Positions 1,012-37,801 of a stretch of DNA of 46,126 nucleotides are shown here, one piece after another. Origin of the DNA: Rhizaria sp. SCN 62-66 (taxonomy: Eukaryota); assembly GCA_001724265.1 (NCBI GenBank), contig MEDY01000311.1, positions 1 to 46,126 of the forward strand. The letters run 5' to 3'. The notes below the pieces were generated by a model. It saw nothing but the letters and a program-made list of their open reading frames with translations, ran no database searches and was not told where the DNA came from. Every line of letters begins with the position of its first letter. The stretch's first letter is position 1. A program made the position numbers and the translations under genes.

Positions 1012-4000
1012 ATGGCGCTGACCATATTCTTAATCACCCTCCTTTTAAGCACACCTGTCGATTCCACAACTGACAGGGACCACAGAAGTGGCCTCGCCCG
1101 TTCACATCAACTCCCGACTTCCCAGACTACAACAACTGCAGCCCAGTCCGTACGTTATGATGATGTCAATGTTGCTTCAGATACCGTCCCCACCCCGCGC
1201 GCGATTGATTCCACCGGCCTTGCGTCCACTACAGCGCCTCCAGCCGCAAAGTCCGCAGACGCTCGCTCAGCCGGTGGTGAGCCCGTCTCTCCCGCGCGGG
1301 CTCCTCGCGTGCGCCGGCAGTCCCCTTTCGACAAGGCCACGATGGCGCTCTACCTCGCGCAGCGCAACGCGCGCCCGGTTCAGCGGCGGCCGCCGCCGGA
1401 CCCCCGCCATCCGCTTTCCATCAAGTCGCGCACTCAGTCGAAGGCCGCGCTCGAGGTCTACAAAGCTAAGCGTTCCCGCGCCAGTCCTAATGCCAGCGCC
1501 AGCACATCCACCCGCGCTGAGGCGTCATTAGGTCTCGCAACGGTCCCTGCGTCGCCCAGCGGCGCTACACCTGCCCCGGCAGCTGTTAATACAGGTCGCG
1601 GTGCCGGCTTCAAAACGTTAGTAGTGGAGTACCCTGTGGATCCGGGTGACGGGGAGGTCCTTCCAGAGGTTCCGATTGACTGGGAGGAGGAGCCGCTCGA
1701 TCCAGAGGATCCGGGTGGCGGGGAGGTGCCGATCGATCCAGAGGATCCGGGTGACATTGAGCTCGTCGACTATGGTATCACGCAACCTCACGTTCAAGCA
1801 ATTTATTTTATTGGATCTGAACTGTACGTTACCGACGACTTGTGTAGGAATTGATATTTTACGCTCGTACATGTTTTAATTACAGCATCATCATGTGTTT
1901 GCTTAAACGCATGCCATTACTCTAGTATCACTAAATGAATCTTAATTTGCATTTGCTGACGTGATGTTCATTCATCTATCATTCTATGTCTTGGTTGTTC
2001 ACTGGCTTATTAACATCTACTGTTTCTTGTCACATTCACTTCCACAGCGATTACGACGGCTACACAACATACTACTATGGGATGACGGTTTCTTTCTCAT
2101 GCGAACAGACTACATGTACGACTGTGAGCTTAGCGTTCGTTCCTGAAGACGGCGACATGGGCACTTCTGTCCCGTTCACCTCTCGTACCACTGTTTTGCT
2201 CAGCACCGGCGATGGGGTGATCTATGAATGCGGCATTCAAACATACGAGACTAACTTCAATCACCCTAACAATGACGCATTATGGCTCCAGAATTGCGGC
2301 CTACCAAAAGGCAAGTACTTTCTCAACATCCTTGGGGCGAAGATGCTGTCAGATGTTGGCGAACACCACCCGCTTCACATGTATGACTACAACCAACGCC
2401 TTCTCGACTTCATGAACGGCGCATGGGTCATGAACACTTATATAGTCGATTTTGCCTCTGATTTTGTCTCGCATGTGTGGTTTACGTCCTCGCTCGTGTC
2501 AGCTGGCTTCTCAGCAACAAAGCTGCCCGATACTGGCGACATAATGAAGGGTCTGCAACTTGCTATCGGTAACTTTGACATGGCGATGATTAAGTACATG
2601 ACTGACATGCTTGACGCAATTGCCGTCTACGGCACGATGATGGTTATGGTTGGCCTGAAGGGTACTTCATTGCTGCATACCGATAGGCCAATCACGCTTC
2701 AGTCTCAGGAGTCCGATTTCAGTCATTCGTTTTCTGTGACACAGATGCCAATTTCATTTGACGACATGAAGACGGGGCCCGATATCTCCTCAATGGACTC
2801 TGATAAGTATGGGAGCTATGGAGAGTACACGTATCTTGCCTGGAAGTGCGGCTCGCCGATGCAAGACGATGAGTTGCCGTCACGTATGACTTTCCAGCTT
2901 GGTTACGCGCCTGGCGAGGGGGCGGCGAGCAAGAACGCTTTTTCCGCTATTGTTTGCCTTGCCTCAACAGAACGCGAACTCCTCTTGTGGACGTGCGACT
3001 CGCTCACAGATAACAACGCGGCTCCTCACGATTACACTGAGGAGGAAACCACAATCACGACTAGTCTGACGTCGGTAGAGGGCGAGTGTAGTGCCCCCGT
3101 GAATCCTAGTTTTTCATGCTCGCGTATCGAGCTTCTCGCGTTAAAGGGAGGTGATCTTGTGGCTACATCAGGAAGTTTCGGTGCTCTATTCCGCATCGTG
3201 GTCAAGCTCAGCGTTGCAGCCGTTGAGTGGGGCTTTTCATTTTCGTCCAGCTCTCAAATTATAATGGGTTTACAAAACGCCTTTCAATGCCTCCAGATCG
3301 GCGCAAATCCAAATCACATCGAGGTCCAATGCTCACTGAAACAAAATGTGATAATGGACGAACTGAGGTTTGTTGTGACGCATTTTATCCATCCCACAAC
3401 TGCAGGAACTCTTCATCCAGGACACATGTACATTAGTGCGTTTGAAGTATCTGAACCTGTGCCTTTCATTTCGTACGTGATCACAAATAGGAACACGATG
3501 TTTATCACACCCTATGAAGTCGAGAATCCCTAGATAAGTACGTCTAGGGTGTCCCGCTTCACGGCCGAGAAGGTACTGCTCTTCGGCATGGAAGATGGCG
3601 GCTCAGGAATAGGCCACCTTTATGGCGAGCTTTATGCAACGCTTGAGGTGACTGATATCACTTCCATTACCATCTTGAGCAGTATGGAATTATTTTACCG
3701 CGGATCACTGCTTTTATGGACCGTGGTGCCCGTGTCACCGACGACGACAGTGAAGTACATGAACACAAAGACGACGCTCATTGAGAATATTCCAACTGAT
3801 GGCGCACAGATTCAGCTGACGCTCCCCTTTATGATTGCCACCGATATCATTGATGATGTCATTGTACGCTTCGAGAGCGGCTTTGCAGGGCCATTGGACT
3901 TTGATCCCGAGAAAGGCTTTCCGGCTTCGGAGGTTCAGTGTCAGGAAGAGTTTGAAAATGTTATCATTGAGACGCTCAAAGGCTCAATTTTACTCAGTGG

Positions 4001-7000
4001 TACATTTGATGGACCCACACAGTTCACAAATGCGCCTGTCTTAGAGAGTTACGCGACTGCACATTTATTCTTTGCGCATGTCCGCAAGTCACGTCCAGAA
4101 CAACGATTTCTTGCACTGCAAGTCTCTGGCCTCACTAGCACCTTCCTGCGTACAAAGACCCTTGAACATGACGACGATCTCGGCATGGACGTGCTTCGTA
4201 TCTCACAACTTACGGTCCAAGTGGCTTTTAGCAGCGGCGATGTCCCGTGGCTTACTGCTCTTGCCATCGACGAAGCTGTTGAATATGAGGATGATATTTT
4301 GAATTTTGCCAGTACTAACAACGTAGGACCTGTTGGCCGCATTCCAGGGACAGCGACTGTCGGCAAAGCCTATTTGCAGAAGCTTGATGAACCGTATCAT
4401 GGGACCTCGTTTGACACGTTATTGGTTGTGCCGATTCGTGATGTTACGATCTACCCTGACTCGTTTGACGTTACGTCGCGCGCCGCAGTGCTACAGTTTG
4501 TGCTACCTGTAGATGTTAGCGAGGACGTATCCGAAGACTTAAAGTTTCATGTGCGTTTGTGGTCTGACGATTCCTGGGCGCTGCCCTGTCTGCGCCCGTA
4601 CCCATCGTCGGGGGTCTTCCAAGTTCAAGGCCGCGGCATGTCGCCGGAACTGACGACTTACCCACGCGAAGCAATTTCGGTTGTGAGCGCTCCTTCTGAC
4701 GGTTCGGTTTCGGTGTCGGAGTCGGACGGCGAATTCAGGACCACTGTCACCGTGACAGCGTTCCTCATGGGCAACGCTTGGGGTAATACGCTGCCTGAGG
4801 AGGCTAACATGAGGATTGGACTAGATAATGGCGAGACATTTCATCTTGACATCACTGTTACGTTAAGCAGCGCATGCGAAATTTATTTTGGGGCCGATGC
4901 CAAGATGGACAAAGTTGAGGCAATTGCATTAGGTGAAGAGATGACTTTTGAATCGTTTATCAGCGAGCGTAGCATCATGCTGAGGATCCGCGATGCGCAA
5001 TATATGACTGGAACGGATGGCCTTACGTTGACAATTAACGATGTTGGTGTTCCAAGCGACTCCGGCGTCTCCATTTCGGAGAATGATATCACAGTCACCA
5101 TGATTGCGTACAACAACAATCCGCGTTTGCGTGCTATGGTGCTCATGGGTGATAATACGGAGAAACTAACAGTTCTTGAAAGTGCGCAACCCCCGCTTCC
5201 CTCGCCACCGATTCTCACAGCCACGTATCTTTCCGCTACTGCGGGCACCACGGCTATCGGTGAGCTCGGTATGAAGTGGACTGCTTTTGGTACTAAGCTC
5301 TTTACTGCTACTTTCAACCCTACAGGTCCTGGTGTGTGCCAACACATCGCATCAACGTTTGCGCTTGCAGAGAGTCACATTCAAGCATACCCCGTCAGCG
5401 GAGTAGCAGCACTTGCGAAGGAAAACGTGCCCTCCTGCACTCAGACCGCGACAAACCCACCGCAGCTTAGCTGCTCGCTGGCTCGCGATACGGTTATAGG
5501 CGACTTCTCCCACATCCGGTTTCAGATCTTGATGGCTGGCTCTCTTTCATCACCATGCAACCCCTTTTGCTGGAACATTGCGGTCAATATGGATGGCACG
5601 GGTATTCAAAATGTCGTCCCTACAGTCCCTTTGGCCACGCTTACTATGCTGGCGCCACCAACTCTTGTTCTCGAGCACAACGACTGGCTTGACGAAGCAC
5701 TGCGTTTTCGCGCCAAGATCGAGGTGCCGTTTGTGGAGCAACCCATTGCGCCGAGCTATTTCACAATCTCACCCAACGTACTGACGACTGATTCCGGTAT
5801 CAAACCGACTGTGGAGACAGCATCTGGTTCCTGCGTCCACACGGGGACCTCGACAACGATTTCTTCATCTGTCCTTAACCAGCGCACAGTGGGTGTTGCA
5901 CCCGTGACACCTACGAGCTACAGTACAACGACATGTCAAATCACATTCATCATGTCGCATCTCTATTTTTCGCTCCCAAACACGCGCTTCTGGGTCTCAT
6001 TCATCGACCCGACGACAGGAAACTCGCTCTTCGGTGCTGAGATTGACCTCGACTCCTCGACGAAGCTGAAAACACCGGATCTTCGGTACACGGCGGCCGT
6101 GCATCCGATTCAGCGGAACCCGGAGGTTCATGAGCTTTGGGATGTTGACTTTGTCCTCTCGATCTCGAACCCTGGCAGCTTAAACCTAATGGCATTTGAG
6201 AACCTAATTGCAACATCTGGCATTGTCGAAATCGGGCCACTGGAAGGCATTCAGTTTTCACAAGTCAAGCAAGGCGCGCCAAATGAGTATGGATACGCCA
6301 GCAAGCTGATTGAGACGAGTGTCACTCATTACACAATTCTTGACAGCAGTGACGAATCTGTCACAGTTGAGTATAAGCTTTCATCAGCCAAACCAGATCT
6401 GCCACTGCGCGTGCGTTTGGCTGATGTCATTGTCACGAAGCAGAACATGGAATTCGCAACGACGTCACTGAAAATAAGCATCTCCCCGAACAAGCAGTCG
6501 TGGTCAATGCATCGATGTTTGCCATCTCAGTATACGTACACCTTTGTTGACTTCGCCGACTCATCACTTAAACCTTCGTTTATGCTTTTTGCTGTTGGTA
6601 GCGTCATTAACGGCGCGCAACGCGAGGCTATTCTCGACTTGATTGTGACGTTTCCGGCAATGGGCCACCTCACAGAGGACACCCCTGACAGGATGCTCAT
6701 TGCCGAGCCCATCTACTTCATCTTCGATATTGTTCCAGGCTACACAGAGACTGAGTTCACGCTTGAAGCTGTTGATGGCAATGTTTACGAGCTCAACGTA
6801 TTTACCGATGGCGCGTATCAGAATGGCAAATCAGACTACTGCATTTCATCAGACGACGTTCGCCGCTGTGTGAAATTTATGCCAGACGAAAACGGGGTTG
6901 TGTTGGATGAAACCCTCCAGTTATCTGACGGCGGTAGTGAGGTCGATATTCGCGAGGTTCGAATTGCGCGTGCGCTTAAGATCTCGATGCCGGAGGTTAG

Positions 7001-10000
7001 CGAGACACTTGTTTTGCCCGAGTCGATTACGCTCACGGTCATTACCACCCGAGGCACACTGTACTTTCCGTCCATGATTAATCAGAACGAGCCTTGGAAG
7101 TTTCATCTAGCTCCTGTGAACTACCGTAGGTCTGTGTCGTTCCGTACTTTAACGACAGCAACGGTGCCCACGGTGCATACCGTGTCGTTCTCGTTGGCGT
7201 CAATGACCGGCATGATCTGGGGCGACACAGACCTCTTTTTCCGTTCTGCACGTTCAGATCGTTACAGTTGGACCAACGAACTTCCCATGAGCCTACGGCT
7301 TAAAACATCGGTGTACTCGGGTTGGGAGTCTTGCCTAACACAGACCTCTGCCAGTGATAATTGGGGTGACCTAGGAACGACGTTCCTTCTCAACGGTTGC
7401 GCACAAAACTCCCCAACCACTGGTAATGTAACATCTTTATGTAGTAGCAACACCCCTAGCTCTGCGCTATACCTCGAGTCCACCTGCGGCACAGTCACTG
7501 GCGCACCGTGGCCCACAGGCTTTAATATGGGCACAGGAGTGGTCGGTGTCCCCTACCATCCGTGGAATGGCGACAAAATTGAGTTCTCGATGCTTACGGG
7601 TCCTCAAGCGTCATACGATACGACGAAGTACACGTTCACGATGACGACACCGGTGCCAGTGGGTGTTCTCTACACATATTTTAATGCCACAGTGAACTAC
7701 GATGTTACGTTTACCTTTTCACTCAATTCGGCCATTACTGATGCGGCATATCTGCCTTCTAAGCTTTCGAAGCTCCGTATTTCATTATCATCAGATTGTG
7801 CTACCAAGGCTATGATGTTCAGTTTTGAAAACACCACGGTATCGTCTCCGTCCAACACCTGGAGCTGGATGTTTGAAGAATATGTTCCCACCACCATTTT
7901 GGCGACCCCAAATGCTGCTCTCCCGATCTTGAGTACATCACAGCAATTGACACTCCATAACTTTGTCTGGGTCTCCAAATACTCCGATGCGGTTTCATCT
8001 TGGCCACGCACAGCGTCGAGCTGCTTCTCGCTTAGTGTGTACTACCGTGACCCCGCTGACGACTTAATTACGAGTGTGCTTCTCACGGCTCCAACCCAGC
8101 CCAATTTCGTCAATCCTCTAGTCTCTGAAAGCCCCCCGTTTATCAAAATTGCGCCAGCAGGTACTGCGAAGGTTACGGTTCTTAACGAGTATGAGGAAGG
8201 AGGCGTACAGTACTACGACATTAGTGCAACACTTTCGTTTAGTATCACGTCGAGTGCCCCCATTGTTGGCCTTTTCAATTTTGCAATTGTTTCAATGCAA
8301 GATGAATTTACTTTTGGATACTCAAACGAGCCTGCTCCAAGCCTTGTCACAACTCAGCCTGATAACATTTTTGCTTCTGAATGCTCAATTGATATTGAAG
8401 AATTGGGGATTGTGCAGTTCTTGTGCACAAACCACCCAAATGCACCTGCTTTTAATCACCTCATGGAGATTAAGCACTTTGTTCTCAACGGAACCAAGGT
8501 GCGCAACACAACCATCAGTGGGGAGTTTTTCTATCTCGACACCCGGTCGATTTATGATGGTGTCTCTGATGCAATCTTCCAGTCTATTCTATATGTCAAT
8601 GAGCCGAGCACGTCGCCTTATGCGTCCGAAACCAATAACCGGTTCACTATTAGCGTGCTCTCGCGTCGGCTTGCTGCTCAGCCGTCCGACCCCACCGACA
8701 TCTTCGAATACGACGTTGATCTGGAGATCGTCATTCCAGCGCTTCAAGATATTGGTTCTGGGGACCCGCTGAATATGCGTTTTGTTATTGAGGAGGACGC
8801 TAATCTATGCGGGGTTTTCGATTTCTCACTTGTTGCTTCGTTTCCCAATCACTTGACTGCGGCACAGGTACCTACCTGGGTCACGACGGTCGACACAACG
8901 ACGGGCTTCTTGATGGGAACCAGCACGGGCACTCTGCCTGCGGAGGTTTTCATGCCCTCTCCATTCGTAATTACTCTCTCTGGGCTAAAGTGGACTGTGC
9001 CGCCGTCGTTCTTGGCCAGCGGTGCAATGATGACCCTGCCCGCTTCGTGCATCACACTCTACGAAACACATTCGAGTCTGCAATACGTCACTTTCACTCC
9101 CCACGACATGAATGCACCCGCGTCACAGACGGACCAGGTGGGCTTTCTGATCACAATGGCTGGTAATGCAGTGTCTTATGAGTCTGAGCTGCATGGCGTG
9201 TCTCGCGGCGACTCGCTGACATTGGCAATGGAGTTTACTCTTAATCTCGCTTTCTACTCCATTGCTGCGCTGCCGACAGTGATATTTAAACCAGAGGTGC
9301 TTATTAATGTTAACGATACGATGTGTGACAATCTGTACTTGTTCGACTCTTATGAGACACCTGACCGACCGGACGTCACAGCTGATTACAGGTGCGCGCC
9401 TGATGTGGCGGACACTACAGTCAACGATCATCAAGTTAAAGCCTATGTTGCGCCCGGCTGTGGCGCCGTTCTAACAGCACCAATTGTTAAAAAGCTTTAC
9501 ATGAATACGCGCCTTGTTGCGCTTTTCAACCATTTGCCGACGATCGAGTTCACAAACTGTCTTCGTGTGCGCGTAGGTGACTATCTCTTGCCACCGCTCC
9601 GCACTGTGGCACCACAGCTTGGCGAGAACCTGTGGTACCGTGCGGGTGTGAATCAGATTGTGCCTAATTTCTCCACATTTACACCCGACGAGCCGAACCG
9701 TGTGAGCGTGCCTGCGCAGCTGACGTATAAGTTTGCGCTGGTTTTCTGGCCGAGCGTCGCTGCAATGGATTTTACGACACCCGTGACATTCTCTATCCGC
9801 GGTATGTCCTCTACTTGCACTGCCCAGTTTAACTTTTCTGGGGCGTCAATCAACGCACAGATTGAGGGAGCATTTCCTTACGACACGGGCTGCACACACC
9901 AGGCAGTTAATGCGACAGCCGTGTACGCCCAGTGTGGCAACAGCAATCCGCGTATTGGCGTCAACCAAATGCTCACTCCAGTTGGTTTTACACTTTCTCT

Positions 10001-13000
10001 ACCGTTTGTGGGGAAGTGGACAGATCTTGATAACGCCGCCTTTTTTGACACAGATTGCTTCACAATTGAGGCTTTCTCGTCGACTGGCGTTAAGCTTATC
10101 ACGACTAACTCCGCCGTCAAGAAGTTCTCAGTCACACCGTTCCTGCCCCAAGCATATTTCTGGCTCCAACCTCGACTGTTCCGCCCCACGACTGATGGAA
10201 GCATCACACTGTTCTACGATGTGTACACTGTCATGTTCAACGACTGTCCTGTGTCAAATAACTGCACATTTGCGCTTGACATTACCCCGTCACTTAGCAA
10301 GCCTGAATGTTTGTCGATGGCACTTGTGCAGACGAATGGGGACTTTGTACCGATGGGTAACGGCCGGCTTACGGCTGCTCAAATCGCACTGATTGGAGCG
10401 ACATCAACATTGAGCACGGTAACGCACCCCAGCTATCCTAACGTCGAGGCCGTCGCCTTCGCGTTTAACCCGTATGCGGCGACCAACAATATTCCTCTAT
10501 ACCGTATTGAGATGTCACTGGGTCTACGTATCAGCACGAGTGTCTTGATGAGCGCTGGCTTTTCAGTGCCCAACACCTGCTTTAAGATTCATCCCACCGT
10601 GCCGACGCTTTTTCAACATTCTGTCGAAGACTCTGATAAACTTCCTGACTATGACGGTGCGGGCGTGCTGAGCGGCATTTTTGTTGCCTCTGAGGCTGTT
10701 CTTCATTCATCTGTCAGTTTTCACAATGCATCATCAATTGCATACCGCACACGCAGCTCTGTTCTCGAGGCTGTGTTCACAGTGAGTGTGCAACTTGAGC
10801 TTATGGGTATCGTTAATCCGGCTAATACCGTCACAATCAAGGACGCTGGGTTGCGGTTCGATTTCAGTGCCACCACTGTTACAGGTGGCTTCACTGTTGG
10901 CGCAGCAACGAATAAGTCACACTTGGTACTTGTTCCAACAAGCGCTCTTTCCAACGTGCGTGACAGCGTGATTACGCAGCATATTACGCTAACGAACGTG
11001 ATCGTGGATTTGTCCCAGACCTCAGACCGCGTGTCTGCGACCGACCCGCTTGTGGTGCGCCCATCCTTTTACGTCCTCACGACTGGCGACCCCACAGGCA
11101 GCAGCCGCACGACGTCCGAGCTGATGCTGCGCGACGCTAACACAAAACAGTTCTACTGGTGGGCTGGTGTCAACGCTAAGAAGATGCATAATGGAAATTG
11201 GCGCGAACTAAGTAAGGTTCCATACTTCACGTACCTTACTCTGCATATTGTTAACCTTGGCGAGTCCATCGCCCGCAAGGCTGAGTTCTCAGTTACGATC
11301 GAGTGCAGCTTCCTGGTCACCTCCACCGATTATGAGCTCGAGTTCACACCTGCTAGCACCTACATGTCAGCGTCTAGTGAAATTTCAATTTACAATTCGT
11401 TCCTCGACGGCGCCAATCTTATTGACATCGACGCGTCGTGTATTACTCTGGCGTACACTTCATCGAACGTGTCGACGACCATTGACACTGATTTTGTGCC
11501 TGTATTGAGTGCCAACTTTGCCGACCCAGGCGTGCCAAAACTACCAAACGACGGTGTTTCGACTGAAGTGTATGCTATTGTGTATCCGTCCGCGGTTTTT
11601 AGCCATATCTCGACACCGCTGGATCCATCGTTGAACGATGCACGAATTGCCGTAACTCTTGAATTCCTTTTGTTCACCTTTTCCTACCAGAACATGGCTT
11701 CCAAGACAATCACGATTACCCTTCTCGGGAACATGGCTAATTTAGTTGATTCACTTGTACCTAGCATCATCTCCTCTAATCATGTCGTCACAAATCTCCA
11801 TCCTTCGGCAGAGTCGCTCTCCTGTGCCTCGGTAAACGTCTCAGGATCCACGTTGACACTGAGCGACTGTAATAGTTTCGGTAACTCCTCCGAGACCGGT
11901 TACACCTACGTCAAGCCGCAACAACTGCGCGTGGGATACTTTGTGACGCAACATTCGACATACAAGGCTGCAGCGTACGATAGCTCTGGAGAGGATGCCG
12001 CCACTATTGATGTGAATGGTCACATTACGCGGGCTCTCAACGACAAGATCCGTTATCCATTTCTTCACATCGATATTGCGCCGCTCGCTTTCCCGTTTTT
12101 GCAGACCAAGAAGCTCTACAGCGCTATTGGCAGTGAGTTTGTTGCGGACGTTGTGTTTGGATTCCACTTAATGTACTTCCGCCCGCTGACTGCATACACG
12201 CTTGAGGTGACGTCATTACCACTACCCGATGATGCTGCTGGTGTCATTGCATGTGCCACTTGCGGGAGCGGTGTCACCGTAAGTTCTGGCGCCGGCAAAA
12301 CGACAATCAATGTTGTGGGTAAAACCACAGCGTTTGACTTGTGGTCAGACACGGTGACAATCAACTCGCACCGTCCTTATTTGGACAAAACTGATTACGA
12401 CGAGTCCTCTCTCTTGCAGCTCAACATGTTTGGCATGATGGTTGAGGATGGCACGTCGACAAGTTTACAGTCAAGCGATGTGCCTGCGACTGCGTCATTC
12501 ACATTTTACCGACGCGCGCCAGTGTTTAACTCAAGTCACGAATTTGATTTCGCAATTACACTTGCAGATATCTCATGGTCAGGAGGCGAACTTAGCAGTG
12601 CTTTCACTCTGCACCTGTTTATGTACACCGATTTCGGCCGACCGTATTTTTTGAGCAATGATTCAACTGATGAATGTGGTCACCCGAGCTTTAATTTCAA
12701 CGGACTAGTTGCGATGACTGATCTCACGCCGATATATGGTGATTGTGATTACCCCGCGCAAAGTACATTCACGTCGCTTCAGTCAATTGATTCCTGTTCG
12801 GATGGCATAGTTCCGTATTTTTCTCTCGTTTTTGGTGCGAACTCATTCTTGACAAACGCATTCAGGTTTTCAGAGTTAAAGGACGACAGCGAGATTAAGA
12901 GGACTTGCTTTTCTCTTTCTGATGACACGTGGGACTATTCTTCTACGCTTTTGAACAACCTGCAGGTCGGTGAAGTACCTAATGCCTCTTACTTCACTTT

Positions 13001-25000: not shown

Positions 25001-28000
25001 CTCAGTGCGTCTGTCTTTCCTCACGACAGCTGGTATGTGCGGCTTTACCACGTACTCGGCCACTGGTGCGCGTCTCTTCTCCACCACGCTGTCACTAATT
25101 TTCGTGCTCGGCGACACCCAGCAAGAAGTGTTACCGTCATGCCAGTATCCCTCGCGTGACCCCATTGTGATGTATGTCGAGATCGCGTCCGGCAACGTCC
25201 ATTTGCCTGTTGTCACTGTGCCGCTTCTCTCGCAGGGCACTGTTGTGTTTACGACAGAACATGTTGCCAACGCTCTGACTGGTGAAATGACTGCTGGCCG
25301 CGACTGGGCATTTTCACTGCGGCTTGACCCCGTCGCGACTGAGGACACGACGATAACAATTGCCGTTGGCAGAAAGACCAACAATAGCTTCACTCCTGAC
25401 GATTGCTCGATCCGCCTCGCGTCAAGTGAGACGCTATGGGTTGACCTTGTGTATGGCCCCTTTGAGTTCGACTTTACATCCACCACGCTCACTGTTGATT
25501 TTGTGCTCAACTGTCTTACCTGGATTCCATCACTGCCCTCTGTACTGTACGTTACCAACCCATCAAACGGTTGGTATGGCGCCTTCCAATCTGGCCCATT
25601 CCTTGTTCGCGGTGCAATGTGGATTGAAGACTATGCCGCAGAGCCGCTGCCAACGATTCCAAGTCTGACCTCAGCCGCGACGCTTACGCGTGTTCCTGTT
25701 GATGCTAGCTACGTTGCCCGAGTCCGGTTCCAACCCGCAGTGATGGGTGCGGATGGTGGCATGGGCTTCACGTTCTCTGTATCACAAGACTCAACATGTA
25801 ACGTCACTTCGCTGACACATCTAGAGGACGGTACACCTGGGCTGTACGTTGAAAACGGTGTGAGCGAGGTTACGATTGCACTGCTCTGCACAACGTTTCT
25901 TTCTCAGACAACACTTACAATTTCGCCTTTGGACGGTGTTTTCTATAGCCCGTACACAACGCCACCGTTCTCTGTGGAGAACCGCTTTGCAGTCACTGTG
26001 GTCGCGGTGCATGTGTTGGAAGCGTTCAAGATTCCTGTGACATTCTTGCCTCAGAACGCTATTGTGGGTCTTGGCCAGTTTGTGCGTTACCGCGTGTCAG
26101 TCGATTCTAATTACACACAGTGCTTGGGTGCACTTGTCGGTGCTGCTGAGTCTGACCCTGCGCCGGCCGTCACCAATTCGACGGCGTGGAAGTCTCTGAC
26201 TAACGGCGGGTACCTTGAAGTTGCTGCCCTACACACGACCTCGTCTGCTTTCTGGCTTCAGTGCCAGGTCAAGACTCACTCTCAGTCTGGCGAACTTGAC
26301 GACGGCGCTGTTATGCCCCGGTTTGTCATTAATCGCGTGAATGGCACATCATTTATGTCGTTCACCTCGGATCCTTTCTCTGTATCTCTTATTGACTGCG
26401 GCTTCTTCGGTCAGTCAGACAACCGCACTGTTTCCTATCAGGACAACGGGTTTGGTATGACGCACTACAAGGCCACCGCGACCTTCGTCTGTGATGGTGG
26501 TTATGATCTCGTCACAACCGACACGCCTGCGTGCACAACTAACAACGCGATGTCCCCGCCTGTGACAACGTGTGCGCTCACCGCAACGTGCACTGCAGCA
26601 GGATGGTCCGTTCAGGCTCCCACCTGCTCAGTGCATGACTGCGGTACCGTACCTCCGGCGTTTGCAGGTGTTGGCACGAGCCCTGTTCAAGTGCGCAGTG
26701 GTACCACATCTTCTGCTAACAATGGCTCGACCACGTTTGGCGCAGTATACCAGTATGGCTGCTTGTCTGGCTTTGACCTGGCTACGTCGACATCTGAGCT
26801 GTCGTGTACCGCAGGTGGTTGGAGTTCGTTGACTGCGCCTGCTTGTCTGGCTGTCGAGTGTTCCACTCTTGCGCTTGCAAACAACGTTGGTACCATTACT
26901 TACTCGGAACAGCCGTATGGCTTGCGTAAGTATTTGTCCGTTGCAACGCATGAGTGCGCGGCACTGTACGAGCGCACTGATGGTGACTTAAAGCGCCAGT
27001 GCCAGGCCAACCGGACCTGGTCTGGTGTTGCGCCCATCTGCCGCTCCAACACGTGCGTAAGGCTGTACAACGATGCGACAACAATGCAGGCTATTACGTT
27101 TATGCGTGATGGAGTCAAGGTCACTGCAGACGTGTCGGGTACATACTTGACCGGCACCATTGCACAGTATGCATGCGCCGATGGCTACGTATGGGAAAAC
27201 GCGGACGCTGTAACCGCGCGTACGTGTGTCATGGCACAAGGGTGGCTTCCTACTGAGACGCCGCGCTGTGTGCCACGCCCGTGCCCCGCGTTGCAGACCG
27301 TGTCTCTAGGTCTTGTTGTCCAGTCACCCGCCAGTATGCTGAACATGTACGGGACTACGGCAACGTTCAGCTGTGAGTATGGCGCTGTGCTAAGTCACTC
27401 CGACCCGTCTATTATCTGTGAAGCAAGTGGCCAGTGGTCCAGTGATCCGCGCACATGCCAACCGTATTCATGTGGTATTCCGGGTGCTGTCACGTATGCC
27501 ACAATTTCTATCTCCAACGCAGGCCAGCACGGTTTAAAGGGCAACTATCTTAACACGTCTCGTGTCGAGTACCGCTGCAACGTCGGCTACAATCTGCGCT
27601 ATACCGGCTACTCGCTTGGTGACGGTACAGGCTACGTTCAGCAGGCGCTTCAGCAAGGTGTAATGGTGCCTGTCGCGCAGCGCGAATGCACGCCGAATGG
27701 GTGGATTCCATCGACATTGCCGATTTGCGAGGTGAATCAGTGCTCAGTGCTGACTGTGCCGGACAACGGCGCATCTATCAGCTACACTGACGCCCTTAGC
27801 ACGAGCAACAACGGACTCGTCCAGCGTTCGTATGGTACTGTTGCAACGTACTCATGTAACCTCGGCTACGAGCCCCGTGACGCGGCGACTGATGCACGCA
27901 CAAATGGCACGCTTCGTTGCGGTATACTGACGGAGAACTGGATCCCATCAGTCGCCCCCGTCTGTGGCGCAATTGATTGCGGTGCAATCACAACAAACGC

Positions 28001-31000
28001 TCTCTACGCCGCAGATGTGACTTATGAGTTCAACGAGATTACGATGGCGGGTCCTACTCGTTACCAGGCTACTGCTGTTTACCAGTGTCTACCCGGCTTC
28101 GCACTTCCTGGTGGCGCCAATGTCTTTACGCGCACCTGCTCCGCGTCCAGGACGTGGGTTCCAGCGCAACCGGAGTGTGTGGATGTTGATGAATGCGACC
28201 CATCCATCTATGGTGGGCGTTTTTTTGTCGACTGTGCCACTCTTTACGGTCCTAAGTCCCGTTGTACTAACACGTTTGGTTCGTTTGTGTGCTCGCCTGT
28301 TATTACGCTTGATGTTGAACCCAGCTTTGTCACCACGACCTACGGTGAGATCAAGTACAACGACACAAGCCGCGAGATAGTGCCTTCATCGACTGCCGGT
28401 GGTCAGATTATCACATTTAGCGTCAACGCGGGCGCCAATATTGCTCCACCGTACATTACGCGTGTGCAGTACTCGAACCCTGATGTCACGATCTACACTA
28501 ACTCTTTGTTGCTGCTGTACGAGTGCAGGGACGTGCAAGTGACGCCCGTTATAAAGGCCGGTGAAATCAAGACGTTTGCCGTTGAATGCACGCTTAGTGC
28601 CGGCCAAGGTACCGACTTGTATCTCAAGCTACAATACTGTATCCAGTCCAATGCCTATGTCAACAGCAATAATACTGTATCATGCTCAACTTGGAATTGG
28701 GGCTGGACCGGAACATATGACCAGGCTGATGCTGCGCATCGTAATGACAACAACGGCCTCCGGATCTCGTACCCCAAGCATTACTTCGTCCCGTCAACGC
28801 TGCACTCAATCACGGTTGCAGGACCCGGTCAGCGCACAAATGACTACGTTAGTGCGTCCAACATTGGTGAGGATATTGGTCTTGATGTCGAGAACCTTTT
28901 CTTAGAGCGCGAAGAACTCATTAACATCACATACGGCAAGGGAACCACACCTGAAGACTACCCCCATGTGTGCACGTATAATCTTGCGATGTCGTTAGAT
29001 TATAGCAGCTCACGTCGCACTATTGTGTGCCGCACAAAGGACAACGTCGACGATGTTGACCTTAAGTTTAGGCTTATACTTGCAAACCGCGTTGCCTATG
29101 GTACTGACATGTATTCGTACCCGCAGATGCCCACAATCGAGTCGGTCTATGGCTGCCCTCAGGACGACTTGGTTGCGCGCAACACGCACAACTGCCCGAC
29201 TGACAGCGGTGATGTGCGTCTTACAATTGCTGGCACAGGATTCCTGGAGCCTCTCTCTGCGCTTGTTAGTGGCCGCCAATGCACTGACATCAACCGAATT
29301 AGCAACATGCTTTTTGACTGTAAGCTCCCGGTGGGTACTGGCTCTAGTTTGTCCCTTATTGTAAAGGCTGGGTCACAACGTTTCGAGTCGCGCAGCCGCA
29401 TTTCATACGCACTACCAACTATCACTTTAATCCGCGGCTGTGAACGTGTCTCTGACACGGCGATTCGCGAGTGTAATCGTCAAGGCGGCGACCGTATTAT
29501 GCTGATCGGTGATAACTTTGGTCAAACTGGCGCAACGATCTCTATTGGTGGCTTGACATGCACGAATCCCATTCACTCAACTTCAAATCCACACCGCGAA
29601 ATCACGTGCACAACGCCTGGTGATGCCTCTGTGGACCGTCCAGTTACACTGTTGCAGCGTTACGGTGAGCTTTCGCGCAATTCAATCTTACTGTCATACG
29701 TGCAGTGCCCACCCGGTTTTCGCGGCGAGGATGTCACCTGCGTGCCTTGTGAGACAGGCAATTTTAACGATATGTGGTCTCAACTTGCATGTCGCCAGTG
29801 CCAGCCTGGTTACTATACGAACACAACCCAATCAACCACGTGTTCATCGTGCCCCGTCGGCACATACTCGGGACTTGGACAGACGGAGTGCAAGCGCTGC
29901 CCGCGCGGCACCTTCTCTCAGGAGCGTGCCGAGAGCTGCTATCAATGCGCACCCGGCACCTACGCCGCGCAAGAGGGCAGTGCACAGTGCGAGGCATGCC
30001 CTCTCGGCGCTGAGCACACATCGGACTACTCTTATTGTCAGTGTAAGGCTGGATCGTACATGGACGCAACGCGTGTCTGCCGCACCTGCATGCTCGGTGG
30101 TGACTGCTCCCAGCCAGGTACGTCAGTCTACAACGTCAAATCGCTGCCAGGTTACGCGCCATCGGTCACACTGCAGAAGCGGGACGGTGTCGTGCGTATC
30201 GTCGCCCCCGTTGCGGTGGATGACAGCGGCGTAGATGGGGGCAGCGCTAACAACGATGATGGTCGCCGTAGCGCGCAATCAAAGGTCATTAAGATTCTCT
30301 TCGACAATGCTTCGCGTCCCCGCGAGCGCTTCACCTTTATCAGTGTCACGACAAAGCTCATTAGCAGGCACAATAGCAGCGCCGCATTCGTCACGGCGGG
30401 TCTCGACACATCTTCTTACGGCACCGCTGCTGGAAACTCTACCGATGAAGACACGGACCCTGACACTGTTGTTCTGATGCATCTCGTTACCATCGACCTG
30501 ACACCGCCTGCGTTCAGCTCTGAGCCACCCGCGAGTGTTGTGGCAGCAGATGCCTTGGAGGCCCTTAACGCATACACGACGCTTGAGGGTAAGATCAACC
30601 TTGGTGCTGTCACTGCGATGATCCACCCTGAGTACACGCGCTTTGCGACAACGTCTTTCGAGGTTTGCCTTGCTAAGAGCTGTCTTGGTGCGAGCCAGTG
30701 CATTGAAGGCCATGGTGGTCCGCTCTGCACAGTGTGCTTGCCAGGCTACGGCAAGACGTCAACCTTTGTTTGCGCACGATGCAACGAGCCCGCGCTACGG
30801 TGGTTCTATCTTATCCTTGCGGGTCTTGGTGGTATTATTGGTTGCGCGATTCTTGCTTGGAAACAAATCGTTGACGGTCGCCAGTCGATGAACGAGCTGC
30901 CCGCGCCGGCAGTGCCACTTCTGTTTAAGATTGCCATGTCTGGTCTCCAGGTTATGTCCATTGCCACGCGCTACGATCTGCGCTGGCCTGGTTTCTTGTC

Positions 31001-34000
31001 CACCATGTTTGACTCCGCTGACACTGTTTCCGGCGTTGGTACCGCAATTGTTTCGCTCGATTGCTTCCTCGGTGACGAGCCGGCCGTCAATCCGTTCTGG
31101 GTGACGTCTATCGGAATCATGGTACTGCCTATCCTGGGTATTCTTCTCCCTGTATCTTTCTTTGCTCCTCGCTACCTTGTTGCAAAGCGTCAGTACAAAA
31201 AACACGTGCTGGCTGAGTTTTCTGAGCAGCGTCAACTGTTGTCGCAGATGGTCAGTGATTATGAGGAGTATCTTCGCAGTCGTGAGCGTGTAACTGCGGC
31301 TAAGCGCCGCCGCGACGTGCTCGTGGCTGCTGAGCGTGATCACCGCACGCTGATCTGGGAAAATGTCAACGACCGTGACTCGATGGGCCTGATCACGCAG
31401 CTCGCTGACACACATAAGGCTATTGACGATAAGAGGGGTAACGCGGATATTGACATTAACCGAAAGGACGGCTATAACGCAGCAGCCGTGTACGCCAAGC
31501 GCGTGGTTGGCAAACGCCGTATGTTGCGTGTTCGCGCCCAGAAGGAAGCCACTGCTGGCGCAACTGTGAAGCCCCAGCCCAGCACTTCGGCGCGCAGCGT
31601 CAACAATACTGCCACTAACTCCCCTCGTCTCGCACCACTGGCACCACCTGAGAAGCCATACAACCCTGCTGCACCGGCTACATTTGCCGACTTCGCTGGC
31701 GTTCGCTCGTCGTCGGCTGCTTTCACTGCTGGCTCCGCAACAGCGTCGCCCGTATTGAATGCGCATGCCCTGGCGCAAGCTACGCGCCGTCGCAACAGCG
31801 TTGTACAGGCGCGCGAAAGATCCCCGAACGCTAGCCCTCTTCAGCCGTCGGGTTCAAGTGGTAACCTTGGCAACGCGCTGAGCAGTAGCCGCCGTAGCTT
31901 TGGTGGTGGTGATAGCAACGCATTCTTTGGTCCCAGTACTTGCAACTCCGGTCACTTCCCGCTCTCGCTCCGTCAGCATGTGTCTCGGCACAATGCACGT
32001 GCAGCATCACCGAACATTACCCCTGCGACATCGCATGTTGCTTCGAACGCAGTGCAGCGCGGAAGTGTCCGCAGTCTTTCACCGTCGCATGTGAGCAAGC
32101 TCAAGCTCGACTCGCCGAATGCCTCGGCGAAGCATTGCGCGGCAACTGACAGCGATGATGATTGCCATCTCGAGTACTCTATCTCGCACTTCCAGGGCCG
32201 CGTTACTGCTGCACATGATGGTGATGATTCAAGCAGCAGTGGCAACAGCGACAGTAGTCATCTCAGTGCTTCAAGTCATAACAGTCGCCGTGGTGCCGCT
32301 AGCCGCAGTCGGAACAGCTCCCACCGTGACTCCCCCGCTGTTGCCACATTACCCAACGTCCTCACACTTGATGCTAGCACCCGCCGTCGTATGTCGCGCA
32401 AGAGTGCGAGGACGACTGGCGATGCTAACTCGTTTGTGTCACTCTCAACTGCTCGCAAACCTGCCGCTATGTTTGTCGCCACATTTGATAACACCGCTGA
32501 TGACGTCGCTGAAACCTCGCAAGTGCAACACCTCGCGTTCGACCACAACGACCTCCTGGACTCAAGTGACGACAAAGCTGACGATGACCACTCGACAGGA
32601 GGAACCACGCACAGTTACGATGACTCGCGCTCTGCCCGCATGACCTCACACGACATCACATCCTGCGACGGCAAGATGTCGCGCTACCCTTCAAGCCTTG
32701 AATCACATGACGATGACGCTCACTCTTCCGAGCTCGGCACTAGCTCCACCCTTGGTTCTTCCTCCGTCGCGAGTGCAGAGATGCGCGAGGCCACGGCTCT
32801 TTACGACAGCGTAGCGGATGACATTGCCGCATCCATTTACGCTGAGACTAATGGCCATGAGCAAGCAGGGACCGATAAATTAAGGTCCAGCGACAGCGTG
32901 ACGAAGCGCATTGTTGATGACTCGGTGTTTGCGTTCCAGCTTGAGGTGCTCGATTCTGCCACGGTCACTGAAGTTGCCCTGATGCACGCCTTTGCGAGGG
33001 TCCGCGAGGACAAGACAGAGGCATTTGCACGCACAGCGCGCGAGGTCGAGGTGTACTCTCAGATTGTGCGTGAGACGCCAGAATTCTCCGAAGCGCAGCG
33101 CGACAAGCTGATTGCGGCCTCTAAGACAACCGAGGCTATGTCGCGCGTTGTGCAAAGCCAAGAGGATCTAGAGATCATGCGCGTTCTTGCGCAGCAGACG
33201 TTTGAGGCAATGTATGAGGCTGAACAGCTGCGCGAGCGCGTGCTGCGCCGCGAGCGTGAGTTCCAAAAGGAGCGCGCGGAGCAGCAGCTTGCTTGGTACG
33301 TGCTTAACTATGGCGATAAAAAAGGCACGAAGCAGTTTGAGACAGAGCGCGCAAAGAGGCTGAAGGCTGAGCCTCCGCAGCTGACTGCATCCGAAATGCG
33401 CGTGCGCCTCGACGTTGCTGAAACGCAGTACAACCAGGCGTCGTCGGAGTACCTCGGCTACATCATCACCGCCATTACCGTCGTCATGTTCATGATTCAC
33501 CCCAACATCACGCGGCAATTCTTCACCATTCTCTCGTGCAAGAACGTCGGTGGCAGTGACGATCCCAGCGCTCGCGTCGTGCTCGGTGAAATGACTGAGC
33601 GGTGCTTCTCGTCGCAACACATCTTCTTCATCTTCGTGCTCGGCGTACCCATGCTCATCATGTGGGTAATTGGCATTCCGTTCTTCGCCTGGATTGTGCT
33701 GTTCCGCAATCGTGACCTTATCACCATGCCTGCCCAGGGCGCATCAGCCGTGACGCGGAACCAGAAGCGCATCTTCGAGTCACAAATGGCCTTCCTATAC
33801 CGCGGGTACAAGCCCACGCGCTATTACTGGTTCCTGAACGAAATGGTCCGTAAGGCCCTTCTCGTCGCCATCGCAGTCTTCTTCCCGGGCTCGCTGCACA
33901 CACAGCTGCTGATGGCTTCGCTGCTTATCTTCGTGTGTATTTTGATGCAAATTCTTGCGCGGCCGTTCGAAAACAAGATCCCTGAAATTGTCGAGTTCCT

Positions 34001-34955
34001 CTCGCTCTTCTCCTCCTTCATGGTTTTCTTCCTGGCCAACTTCCTCTTCGTCGACACTGTAAGCGAAGAATCCAAGACTGTAGTCACAGTTTTCATCATC
34101 CTTGTTGTGCTGTTATTCTGCGTCTCCGTCGTTGCTGGCTTCTTTTACCTCACCAAGGAAGAGTCCAAGCTCACGTCACTGCGCACTGCGCTCCGCGCCG
34201 CGCACGCGCAGGGTCAGGATACTGCGCCCGTGATTCGTGAGTGGCGCATTAAGCGTGCGCGCGAGCGCCGGTTTAAGCTTGCAGAGCGTGAGGGTTCCGT
34301 TGCTGCAGTCACCAATGCTACGTCCGGGTCTCCGAATGACGACGGTTGCACAACGCTTAAGTCAGTCCAATCTGCTTCAGCCGCTGCCGCAACCGCCCAG
34401 TCTCGCGACATCGAAGATGGCTGGGGCGCTGACGGCGACGCGGCTCGCAACTCTGGCGTGACGTCGCTCTTCACGCTCACACGGTCCTCGCGCAACGAAA
34501 AGCTGCGTGGCGCCTCTGCAGCAATCCGCGACGACGCGCGCGACGCCACGCTCTTCGCCAGCTTCGCACCCGCGCCTGGTGTCGCGGGAGGCGACGCTGT
34601 TATTGGCGACTTAGGTCTCAACGCAGCGCAGCGTGGGTTACAGCTGGTAACGCTGCTTGATGCCGGCAGCGACATCCAGACCTCTGTTTCCACGGATCCC
34701 ATATATGTCAACGCACGCTCACAGCGTATTGGCGCTGATGGAGCTGCGGACAATGTTGCGGGCGATGACGCTGTTAAGCTGTTCACCGAGACGCTCGCTA
34801 ACCACGTCATGGCGCGGTCAATGACCGACAAGCGCCAATTTGCGCTTGATCTGACCCATAGGCATGTAAATTCTGACATTGCGAGACGTGAGACGTTTGA
34901 AGCTCTCGATGACGATGCCACTGACGTCGATGCACCATCGCGGCAAAATATGTGA
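1012..34955 (+). CDS. Giant (~11,239 aa) cell-surface multi-pass membrane protein, join(1012..1823,2048..34955), with two in-frame TAG codons. Order: signal peptide, long beta-rich ectodomain, propeller-like region, Cys-pair repeats, 8 Sushi/CCP, Ca-EGF, IPT/TIG-like, Cys-rich TNFR/GCC2_GCC3-like repeats, ~9 TM module, C-tail
   Basis: ATG 1012 starts a hydrophobic signal (MALTIFLITLLLSTPVDS), with an in-frame TGA upstream at 949-951. A phase-2 intron GTACGT(1824)...TTCCACAG(2047) joins exon 1 to the long frame (GSEL|DYDGY). ORFs 1986, 3549 and 20649 are all in one frame and separated only by single TAGs. The frame ends at TGA 34953-34955. Confidence 0.8.
1638..1753 (+). repeat. Short intragenic repeat encoding an acidic Pro-rich DPEDPG linker
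   Basis: TCGATCCAGAGGATCCGGGTG occurs at 1697-1717 and 1733-1753, with a partial GGATCCGGGTG at 1638. The protein reads PVDPGDGEV...PLDPEDPGGGEVPIDPEDPGD. Confidence 0.85.
1824..2047 (+). other. Spliceosomal GT-AG intron (224 nt, phase 2) of the giant gene
   Basis: Donor GTACGT, AT-rich body with stops, pyrimidine-rich 3' end TGTTTCTTGTCACATTCACTTCCACAG. The phases match (CT+C = Leu). Confidence 0.75.
3531..3533 (+). other. In-frame TAG #1 within the giant CDS (..EVENP-TAG-ISTSRVSRF..)
   Basis: CCC TAG ATA AGT ACG TCT AGG GTG; the same frame then stays open for 17 kb. Confidence 0.7.
20601..20603 (+). other. In-frame TAG #2 within the giant CDS (..HTVSSA-TAG-SAGSIVIVYND..)
   Basis: GCA TAG TCT GCA GGA AGC ATT GTC...; the same frame then stays open for 14.3 kb to TGA. 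Confidence 0.7.
26391..28292 (+). other. Eight tandem Sushi/CCP domains followed by one calcium-binding EGF domain (within the giant CDS)
   Basis: The pattern C...A-x-Y/F-x-C-x-x-G-Y...C-x-x-x-G-x-W...P-x-C recurs 8 times, followed by DVDEC...C..NTFGSFVC. Confidence 0.85.
28300..30790 (+). other. IPT/TIG-like domains, Cys-rich CPxGTY/F repeats and a juxtamembrane CIEGHGGPLCTVC motif (within the giant CDS)
   Basis: PTIESV...LTIAGTGF...SGRQC and PTITLI...LIGDNFG...GGLTC...ITCTTP; repeated C-P/A-x-G-T-Y/F units (about 29700-30100); C-x-x-G-x-x-G-P-L-C-x-x-C just before TM1. Boundaries approximate. Confidence 0.75.
30800..34150 (+). other. Multi-pass transmembrane module (~9 helices) split by a ~760-aa low-complexity loop
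   Basis: Hydrophobic segments at about 30800-31165 (3) and 33450-34150 (6), with motifs FLYRGYK, YYW..E..RK and ARPF. Helix count estimated by eye. Confidence 0.75.
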
Positions 34956-35128
34956 TGTGTTTTTTTGTGTGTTCTCTTGTCCATATATATATTGCCTCTG
35001 TTCTTGCTCCTGTTCTTCTCTTCGAGTAGTTGATTTAGGTAACAGTGTCAAAATCACGCACTGTACTGTGATTTTATCTTGCTAATTATTCGCATCAACA
35101 CCGCCGCACATGTACATTTTTTTTTACA

Positions 35129-35291
35129 AACACGAGTCGTTGCTTCACTGTACTCTCGCTGGTGATTGTGTAAGCGTGCGTGCCAACACGAGAACACTCG
35201 TGTCGACTGTCTGCCAATTACTGCAGACAAGCACTCTAGCTGATCATCAGCACCTTAAGAGCAATCACACTGGTTGATTCGGTGTCGTGTT
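35129..35291 (-). ncRNA. Candidate structured RNA or small element with nested hairpins, function unknown
   Basis: Stems: ACACGAG/CTCGTGT (35186-35203), TGTCTGC/GCAGACA (35208-35229), GCTGA/TCAGC (35239-35251), GTGATTG/CAATCAC (35162/35262) and AACACGA/TCGTGTT (35129/35285). G-U pairs extend the stems on the minus strand. Confidence 0.35.
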
Positions 35292-37046
35292 GACCATTAG
35301 CTTGTACGAATCATTATTGTCTCATGTATACTTTTTTGTTACCTACCTCTCTCACTTTAGTTTTCATTTGTTTATTTTGTGCTTTTAGTGTCGTTATTTT
35401 TCTGTATCAAACTTCAGAGTGAAATGTCCTGTGCAAAATGTGTCAAAACCGTTCTGTCGTTTTGGACTTGCTTTCTCCTGACTTTTGACAAATTCCTTCT
35501 CGTTTATTGCGCATTCATGATTGACATGTATAGAAACACTAAGTTCGAAGTCATCATGATATTGCTCTGTCTAAATCCCTGTTCATTCTGCAGCAACCGC
35601 TTCGTGGTCGGACTGCCTTCGTATAACGACTTTCACTGGGCATGCGTTGCTCATGTCTTGAGCCGGCCCCTCGAGTAAAAAATAATTTGACCATTACTTG
35701 AGGGTTGGCATTCCATTATATAGTACGAGTATGTTCATGTGGAACATCTCAATAATGCTGTTTCTCGTACTTTGTGTACCGCTAGTGACAAGGCACACAG
35801 CATTGTTCCCCTATTTCTGAAAGATTTGAATGCGTGTTTACTATGCACATATTCTCGTTTTGTCAATGATCCTTCTTCGCTATTTGTATCTGGGTTCAGT
35901 CATTACATGCAACAGTTCATACTTGTATGGTTCTTTCTTTCTTAAGTTAACCACGCGAATTCATTTTTAACTGCAGGTGTCCCTCGTGTCCTGCGAGCCC
36001 AATCATAACTTTCTGTTTCATCCGTAATCTTTTTTTCTTAATAGTCCAATACACTTATTTCCTTATTTTAATCTCAATGACAAGCACCCGAATCGAAGCC
36101 ATTGTATCCTGTCGTAAAAGCTTCAGCTTACTGTTACTCCCCAGTCAAGGTTTGTTGGCCTTCGATATTTGGGCGTTCGATATCTTTTATGACCAAACAC
36201 ATCTTACCTAAAATTAGTGTAAAACGTCAGCATTGAAGGCAATATTTAAATAAAAAAACGTGTCGAAAGCATACAATTTAAATTTAGTTCACATTAACAA
36301 AGATCCCATACATGAAATATCATAAAAATAATGATCTGTGAGGCAATTCAGTTAGCTTACGTATTTACAGGGAAATCGCCGGATGAGTTGAACGCTGAAG
36401 TAATCTCGTCGTTCCGTGCGATGCTGCGTTTGCAGGCAGCTGCATCCGCAATATCCGTCGTGCTTAAGCCCGCGCGCGTGTGCTCTCAAGCACATACCCT
36501 CCGCATTCGCAAACTTGGGTGTCTCCGTGTACCCGAACACTTTCAAAAGGTACTACTAGTAGTATCAACCAGATCGACAGAAAAAATAACATCTTATTTT
36601 GGTTCAAGTTCAAACAACACGGAGAAAAAGTTATATGAATCCCCTTTGTCTTTCGACTTCATACAAGCCCCCCCCCCCCCCCCCAATTTCACGAGTTTCG
36701 TGAGTGATTACGATTCACTATGATTTGTATTTATGCATACTTTATGCGTGTCTATGAGTTGATCGCACACATCTACTGCGCGCGTCTCTGTTGCACAAAA
36801 CCTCACTCAAAATAGCACTCTGACACTGCAGCTGCTATGTCACCGATGCGTACATGTAAGGTTTCACTTTCCTCACTCCAATCACGTCTTATCATCATTC
36901 GCTCATCCTTATTGTTCACCCTTCACATCCATTCGATACACTTACGTACGTACATTTTATTTTACATTAACCTTCCTCTCGCACTGAAGCAAGGCATACG
37001 TTCGAGCCACACGGACGTCGTTGCGCACACGTTGTTACGTTCCGCC

Positions 37047-37769
37047 TTAATCGCTGACCTCGTACTCTGACTCTGAGTCGACGTTGTACTTGACCGCGGG
37101 GCGCGCGCGCTGCGTGCGGTCCGACGTCACGGTCGACATGGCCACGTGCTAATCGTCCTCGGAGTCGCCGCCGCCGTAGTCGTCCTCGCTGTTCGAGAGC
37201 GCGCGGGCCTTCTTCCCCCCGCCATTCTTGGGCTCCGCCTTGTCCGCCTTGGCGGCGGGCTTGGCCTTGGCCGCCGCGGCGGGCTTGGCGTCACCCTTGT
37301 CGGCCTTGGGCTTCGCCACGCGGGGCTTCTTGGCCTCCGACGACACCTCGGTCTTGCCGCTGCCGACACGCTTCGCGCCACCAGTAACAGGCGCGGCGGC
37401 CGCATCCTTTTTGGCGGCGGCGGCGGCGGCCATGGCGGCAAGGCGCTCCATCAGCGGCATCGCCTGCAACGCGTCCTCGTCAAGCTCGACGGGCTTGGCG
37501 GCCGCGGGCTTCTTGGCGATCGGGTCATCGAAGTCGTCGTCGTTGCCGTTGCCCGCATCGTCGCTATTGTCATCATCGTCGTCGCCAAGCACGCGGTTGT
37601 TCTTAGCGAGCTTTGACTTGGACTTCGCGGAGGCGGCGGGGGCCGCAGGCTTCTTCTCCTTCGTGGGGGCAGCCTTAGGTTTATCCTTGGGCTTGGACTT
37701 CCCAAACGAGTACACATCGTCATCGTCGTCGTCGTCGTCAATGACCACGTCGCCGCTGTCACTGCCAGA

Positions 37770-37801
<32 letters not shown>

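Follow-up and report, generated by a model that had tools for sequence, protein, structure and literature searches.

Is UAG read as an amino acid in the uncultured eukaryote whose nuclear DNA is represented by contig MEDY01000311.1 (Rhizaria sp. SCN 62-66, GenBank assembly GCA_001724265.1)? The window analysed here, the whole stretch of 46,126 nucleotides (nt), carries two long genes, one for a giant protein and one for DNA topoisomerase II (TOP2), that are interrupted in frame by TAG and by no other stop codon. A preceding sequence-only reading had placed these TAGs at 3531 and 20601 on the + strand and at 37151-37149 on the - strand, had noticed coding-like sequence in the same frame behind each, and had proposed that UAG is decoded as a sense codon, with UAA and UGA remaining stops. 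All three codons (TAGs no. 1, 2 and 3 in what follows) were found where it had put them, and the structure of the open reading frames (ORFs), a conserved TOP2 motif and an excess of synonymous differences agree that coding sequence continues beyond them. Its count of no internal TAA or TGA in about 13,000 codons was reproduced as zero in 12,760 (10,989 in the giant gene and 1,771 in TOP2), and the very low UAG usage on which it had remarked, three codons in all, was found again.

In the giant gene, the first indication that the TAGs are passed comes from the frame itself. Under translation table 11, the + strand frame falls into three ORFs (1965..3533, 3534..20603 and 20604..34955), and reading TAG as a residue turns these into a single ORF, 1965..34955, with exactly two odd steps. 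Counted from its first ATG at 1986, the gene contains two TAGs, no TAA and one TGA, the terminal one, in its own frame and shows no frameshift in 33 kb; the other two frames contain 357 and 721 stops. ORFs of 5,689 and 4,783 codons lying directly behind a stop in the same frame make a chance origin impossible.

With respect to TOP2, the evidence comes from a conserved element at the end of the protein. The enzyme is otherwise complete, with HATPase_c, DNA_gyraseB, Toprim, TOPRIM_C and DNA_topoisoIV all in order (Pfam, expectation values (E) from 5e-7 to 8e-119, the latter for DNA_topoisoIV), and a homologue search returned 7,624 matches at E <= 0.001. The last 90 residues of 76 of 119 homologues contain a C-terminal motif made up of basic residues, a Tyr and then an acidic/Ser-rich run. 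We built a hidden Markov model (HMM) of this motif from those 76 proteins and ran it on the 1,578 stop-to-stop pieces of the window's six frames. Its sole significant match, at 37148..37050 (E=4.6e-4; next best 1.5), is formed by the 33 codons behind TAG no. 3 in the TOP2 frame, and the 1,737 TOP2 codons before the TAG contain zero copies of the motif. A phmmer search with the 33-residue peptide gave a match at E<0.01 to 1 of the 119 homologues and to none in each of 20 shuffles, a result too weak to stand alone.

An intron spanning TAG no. 3 was also considered, and a scan of donors and acceptors together with the composition of the tail left no credible one. In the 1.5 kb scanned upstream, a GTAYG/GTAAG/GTGAG donor comes no closer to the TAG than 1,478 nt, with none inside 1.4 kb. 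Between the TAG and the motif, an acceptor is provided solely by the AG of the TAG itself, which stands behind the purine-rich GAGGACGATT, and in its Lys/Ala/Asp composition the stretch that such an intron would excise matches the remainder of the TOP2 tail.

Contigs from four sequencing runs were compared with the part of the window from 20000 to 39999, which includes TAGs no. 2 and 3. TAG no. 2 lies within a contig of run X4 covering 20476-22667 with 0 differences, and TAG no. 3 within a contig of run X5 covering 36891-37266, likewise with 0 differences; no alternative letter at either TAG is listed in the four runs. The X4 material is DNA, because it also covers a spacer, and its study and year differ from those of the window's probable source run. 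The library of X5 is labelled as complementary DNA (cDNA), yet the computed judgement is that it is probably DNA. The joints listed for these contigs either have non-intron ends or occur in the low-complexity TOP2 tail, and none is near a TAG. Downstream of TAG no. 2, 7 of 10 single-base differences between the window and these contigs are synonymous, where 24.5% would be expected at random (binomial P=0.003). This synonymous excess implies that the region behind both giant-gene TAGs is maintained as protein by purifying selection. In terms of expression, contigs of a polyadenylated-RNA run (X10) are collinear with the giant gene (29439-34707) and with TOP2, and this run showed zero depth in two intergenic bins (35341-36674) covered by DNA run X4, which is weak evidence that both genes are transcribed. 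The zero depth of X10 at 20000-21333 and the lack of a listed piece over 37149-37151 represent missing cover only.

Taken together, these UAGs are real and in frame, and the sequence behind them is conserved or selected as protein. The sequence evidence further supports the view that the ribosome gets past them, whereas the decoding itself, its mechanism and its genome-wide scope are matters that we infer. Translation of UAG, with UAA and UGA terminating, would be a single explanation covering all three sites, and it is the one towards which we lean slightly. In such a system UAG would most likely be read by a tRNA that either carries a dedicated CUA anticodon or is an efficient near-cognate, and recognition of UAG by eRF1 would be weakened alongside. 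Given the extreme rarity of in-frame UAG, the code would most likely be at an early or ambiguous stage, such that the codon can be read and does little harm in TOP2's non-conserved linker or in genes that are long or weakly expressed, yet is still selected against. More tentatively, we suggest that the window may record a stop-codon reassignment in progress, in a eukaryotic lineage met so far in metagenomes alone, with UAG already an amino acid independently of UAA and still near-absent from coding sequence.

Several observations weigh against translation of UAG as a settled feature of this genome. In-frame UAG makes up 0.02% of codons, compared with 0.5-0.9% for TAG when the giant ORF is read in its two other frames, and a density 20-40x lower means that UAG is not behaving as an ordinary sense codon. 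The giant gene, TOP2 and an Arl2-like GTPase gene end in TGA, TAA and TAA, as had been read from the sequence, and a candidate ORF at 952-1854 ends in TGA; with 3 verified terminators only, however, the lack of TAG ends carries no statistical weight. The window contains 0 tRNA genes (ARAGORN) and 0 Rfam matches, and eRF1 is not among its genes. None of the TAGs coincides with a conserved column: our searches brought up no homologue of the giant protein, and the TOP2 TAG lies in a non-conserved linker. In addition, several of the 10 variants downstream of TAG no. 2 are found close to the end of a contig or in just one contig of low depth, and none of the listed RNA contigs spans a TAG. The sequence-only proposal is thus upheld in part: passage of the UAGs draws support from the TOP2 motif, the lack of an intron at TAG no. 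3, the signs of selection and the contigs of other runs, while reassignment as such is held back by the rarity of the codon, the mere three or four terminators, a candidate intron at TAG no. 1 and the possibility of UAG-to-UGG editing.

This candidate intron (3473-3547) belongs to a more ordinary account, in which the giant-gene TAGs would lie in short introns of 3n length and the TOP2 TAG would be a true stop that has recently removed the last 33 residues. The organism does have spliceosomal introns with a GTACG[CT] donor, an in-frame TAG can serve as a YAG acceptor, and at TAG no. 1 a consensus GTACGT donor 58 nt upstream is paired with an in-frame AG that lies 14 nt downstream. The segment so delimited, of 75 nt, has a low coding score (2.9th percentile of same-length windows of the giant gene) and a low guanine plus cytosine (GC) content (0.41, the 3.7th percentile), both of which speak for splicing and so against decoding at this site. 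Nonetheless, the three introns whose limits follow from conserved proteins measure 154, 170 and 415 nt, begin with GTACG[CT], end in YAG and are pyrimidine-rich (pyrimidine fraction Y=0.64-0.69), whereas the candidate is half as long as the shortest of them, purine-rich (Y=0.45) and devoid of a pyrimidine tract, and GTACG[CT] occurs 17 times in the giant gene by chance alone. We regard an intron over TAG no. 1 as doubtful. At TAG no. 2, in-frame GT..AG pairs of 99 and 105 nt have a non-consensus donor, a gene-like GC content of 0.53-0.54 and a coding-like score, which exceeds that of 97% of non-coding windows and is at the 12-13th percentile of coding ones, and an intron there is distinctly unlikely. 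Such an account further requires three separate coincidences, each involving TAG only, a 33-kb gene with just two introns, both 3n and nearly stop-free, and the loss from TOP2 of a motif that 76 of 119 homologues keep, yet which is intact downstream of the TAG; as a whole we judge it unlikely. Restorative editing of the mRNA, in which adenosine-to-inosine (A-to-I) conversion of the middle A would turn UAG into UGG (Trp), appears improbable as well. Passages of PMC11156358 describe such correction of premature UAGs in filamentous ascomycetes (Fusarium, Neurospora), in which ~70 genes need it. The restriction to UAG is as expected where U is preferred before the edited A (same passages), but a U at -1 is trivially true for any UAG. 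TAG no. 1 also sits within strong local RNA structure, a perfect 8-bp hairpin (-21.9 kcal/mol, z=-4.9; 0 of 200 shuffles fold equally well) whose arm sequences occur 2 and 1 times in the whole window. The fungal system, however, prefers hairpin loops (PMC11156358, in the passages cited), whereas TAG no. 1 is in the stem and folding found no comparable or significant structure at TAGs no. 2 and 3 (z about 0). It is moreover stage-specific and confined to filamentous ascomycetes, the window's TOP2 falls outside fungi in our tree, and with 2 of 2 long genes affected, the density greatly exceeds that of ~70 genes per genome. If X5 is cDNA, its contig shows TAG no. 3 unedited, with the reservation that X5 was judged probably DNA.

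The same hairpin, which may be due to chance, be the footprint of an insertion or act as a recoding signal, would fit a third account, namely site-specific programmed readthrough with UAG a normal stop genome-wide and signals at the three positions. Readthrough extensions at gene ends, as TOP2 would have, are known in fungi and animals, and the stimulatory consensus is of the UAG-CAR-YYA type. None of the three contexts (ATA-AGT, TCT-GCA and CAC-GTG) is of this type. They differ from one another, as the sequence-only reading had argued against a single leaky-context motif on the basis of TAG-ATA, TAG-TCT and TAG-CAC, and the folding of the 120 nt behind each TAG is no stronger than that of shuffled sequence (z -0.8, -1.4 and +0.6). 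Also, little protein could be expected from a gene of 10,989 codons if two low-efficiency passages were needed, and selection nevertheless acts on its distal part; we consider readthrough of this kind quite improbable. Decay or artefact, meaning nonsense mutations in dying genes or errors of assembly, is largely refuted and has very little probability left. Metagenome assemblies can be chimeric, and the check in a second data set extended over 20000-39999 and hence to TAGs no. 2 and 3 only; at these two sites the same TAGs recur in contigs of two further runs, neither of which belongs to the study behind the probable source run. Decay sits poorly with 33 kb free of frameshift, TAA and TGA, with the synonymous excess behind TAG no. 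2, and with TOP2 being an essential single-copy enzyme that has all its domains intact. The window contains 244 TAG, 367 TAA and 903 TGA trinucleotides, and TAG being the rarest, three random nonsense changes would seldom all be TAG.

Positions of the genes, in-frame TAGs and related features in the 46,126-nt window
Feature	Positions	Strand	Details
Giant gene	1986..34955	+	10,989 codons + TGA stop; signal-peptide-like start MSWLFTGLLTSTVSC
Candidate in-frame intron at TAG no. 1	3473..3547	+	75 nt, GTACGT...CTAG; removal would take out TAG no. 1
Palindrome/hairpin	3528..3549	+	CCCTAGAT-AAGTAC-GTCTAGGG; TAG no. 1 in 5' arm
In-frame TAG no. 1	3531..3533	+	Codon 516 of giant gene; context CCC-TAG-ATA
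Weak in-frame intron candidates at TAG no. 2	20505..20609	+	99 or 105 nt; GTTAAG donor to AG at 20603 or 20609
In-frame TAG no. 2	20601..20603	+	Codon 6206 of giant gene; context GCA-TAG-TCT
TOP2 gene	37047..42516	-	1,771 codons including TAG; ends TAA
TOP2 exon 1, intron, exon 2	42516-42483, 42482-42329, 42328-37047	-	Intron 154 nt, GTACGT..GCGCAG
In-frame TAG no. 3	37149..37151	-	Codon 1738 of TOP2; context GAT-TAG-CAC
33 codons behind TAG no. 3	37050..37148	-	HVAMSTVTSDRTQRARPAVKYNVDSESEYEVSD; TAA next at 37049-37047
Arl2/Arf-like GTPase gene	44075..44787	+	181 codons, ends TAA; Pfam match
Arl2-like gene intron	44486-44655	+	170 nt, GTACGC..TTTTAG
Ribosomal protein S9-like gene, 5' part	45609..46126	+	Name presumed from peptide RERLDRELQLVGKY
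Ribosomal protein S9-like gene intron	45618-46032	+	415 nt, GTACGC..ATTTAG

As a whole, the window reads as nuclear DNA of an uncultured eukaryote with ~52% GC. Its five features are TOP2, the Arf/Arl-type GTPase, the start of an RPS9-like gene, the giant ORF and the AT-richer spacers between the genes. The partial gene at the right-hand end presumably encodes a ribosomal protein S9-like product, judging from the look of its peptide. The GTACG[CT] donors at 42482, 44486 and 45618 form a consensus tighter than in most eukaryotes, which could mark other contigs of the organism. Just upstream of the giant gene, the ORF at 952-1854 (+ strand, 300 codons) is Pro/Ala/Ser-rich with a hydrophobic start and is a candidate gene without a Pfam match. 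The stretch is present in public metagenomes from bioreactors, wastewater, activated sludge and microbial fuel cells (15 rows, 9 studies).

The giant gene looks like an intron-poor gene for a lineage-specific giant surface protein. Its C-terminal end carries Sushi, TIG and Ephrin_rec_like domains together with a weak match to a TRP-like membrane region (Pfam), and the first ~8,400 residues matched zero Pfam families. An exhaustive search of residues 1-1200 against 1.84 billion representative proteins gave a single match, the window's own ORF, and a 400-residue query around TAG no. 2 had zero matches among proteins of 220-700 residues. Internal repeats were looked for and none were found, and a structure model of the 400 residues around TAG no. 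1 was unusable, with a mean predicted local distance difference test (pLDDT) score of 31. The C-terminal tail of TOP2 (37047-38700, - strand) is unusual in its own way, being about 550 residues long, with poly-Asp/Glu runs that alternate with Lys/Ala-rich ones; many contigs from other organisms cross-map to 37400-38700, where depth spikes and many false joints are seen.

With respect to lineage, TOP2 was placed in a tree of 55 rows drawn from the 120 best matches, a sample without Amoebozoa, stramenopiles, alveolates or excavates and with no fornicate or ciliate. The window's protein, with a best identity of about 60% among the homologues found, groups with four metagenome proteins (P0003, P0004, P0010 and P0017) at a support of 100 in the Shimodaira-Hasegawa-like approximate likelihood ratio test (SH-aLRT), and falls outside the fungi, the green plants, the two chlorarachniophytes and the choanoflagellate sampled. 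One of the four proteins sits on a 310-kb contig. Scans of other contigs for TOP2 returned one locus in metagenomes (L001, 43% identity) and four genes in genomes (L002-L005, 39-47% identity), none of them from this organism. The latter four are eukaryote-type TOP2 genes on contigs filed under the names of bacterial metagenome-assembled genomes (Opitutaceae, Acidimicrobiaceae, Neomarinimicrobiota and Bacteroidetes), and these contigs are probably mis-binned eukaryotic or giant-virus sequence.

A practical consequence is that gene callers with standard settings break the genes of this organism off at TAG. In public protein sets the giant gene appears as separate pieces (P0121), and TOP2 (P0001, on a 5,674-base 'ena' contig that may not be independent of the window assembly) ends at TAG no. 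3 and lacks its conserved end. If UAG is indeed translated here and its reassignment still in progress, the window would offer a view of a stage, the 'ambiguous intermediate' or early codon capture, that is postulated but has hardly ever been caught in a nuclear genome, and a codon that is readable but rare would reveal the order of events, with decoding first and spread of the codon later. Each independent UAG-only case also helps to show how eRF1 and tRNAs separate UAG from UAA. A confirmed case would join the few known UAG-only lineages, and its chief interest would lie in its apparent early stage and its lineage.

Comparison with known systems places these observations between several types of recoding. 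The editing systems of Fusarium and Neurospora resemble the window in that genomic in-frame stops are UAG only and occur in genes still coding for full-length proteins; they differ in that the window's lineage is not ascomycete and that two of its three sites lack a hairpin, the remaining TAG being part of a stem. With their ambiguous or context-dependent codes, Condylostoma, Parduczia, karyorelict ciliates, Blastocrithidia and Amoebophrya likewise translate a stop codon inside genes, but there it is UAA and UAG together, UGA or all three, whereas in the window it is UAG alone. A stop function that is kept in part would explain the strong avoidance of in-frame UAG here, yet no gene of the window was seen to end in UAG (n=3).

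The closest parallels are the UAG-only nuclear codes, which according to passages of PMC5304391 include those of Iotanema spirale, with UAG=Gln, and of the rhizarian exLh, with UAG=Leu, and according to PMC11687900 those of phyllopharyngean ciliates (UAG=Leu or Gln). The former source counts 384 UAGs in 71 genes of exLh, about 5 per gene, and for Iotanema 204 UAGs, which are spread over 126 genes and make up about 8% of Gln codons (PMC5304391, same passages). Relative to these figures, the ~0.02% of codons in the window is far lower, a difference that again tells against full reassignment. The window organism is further set apart from these lineages by its ~52% GC, its introns of 154-415 nt and a TOP2 that does not group with those of the sampled chlorarachniophyte rhizarians. 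It shares with Iotanema, exLh and the phyllopharyngeans in-frame UAG only, UAA and UGA as the sole terminators seen (here at three verified gene ends), and UAG within ordinary conserved genes.

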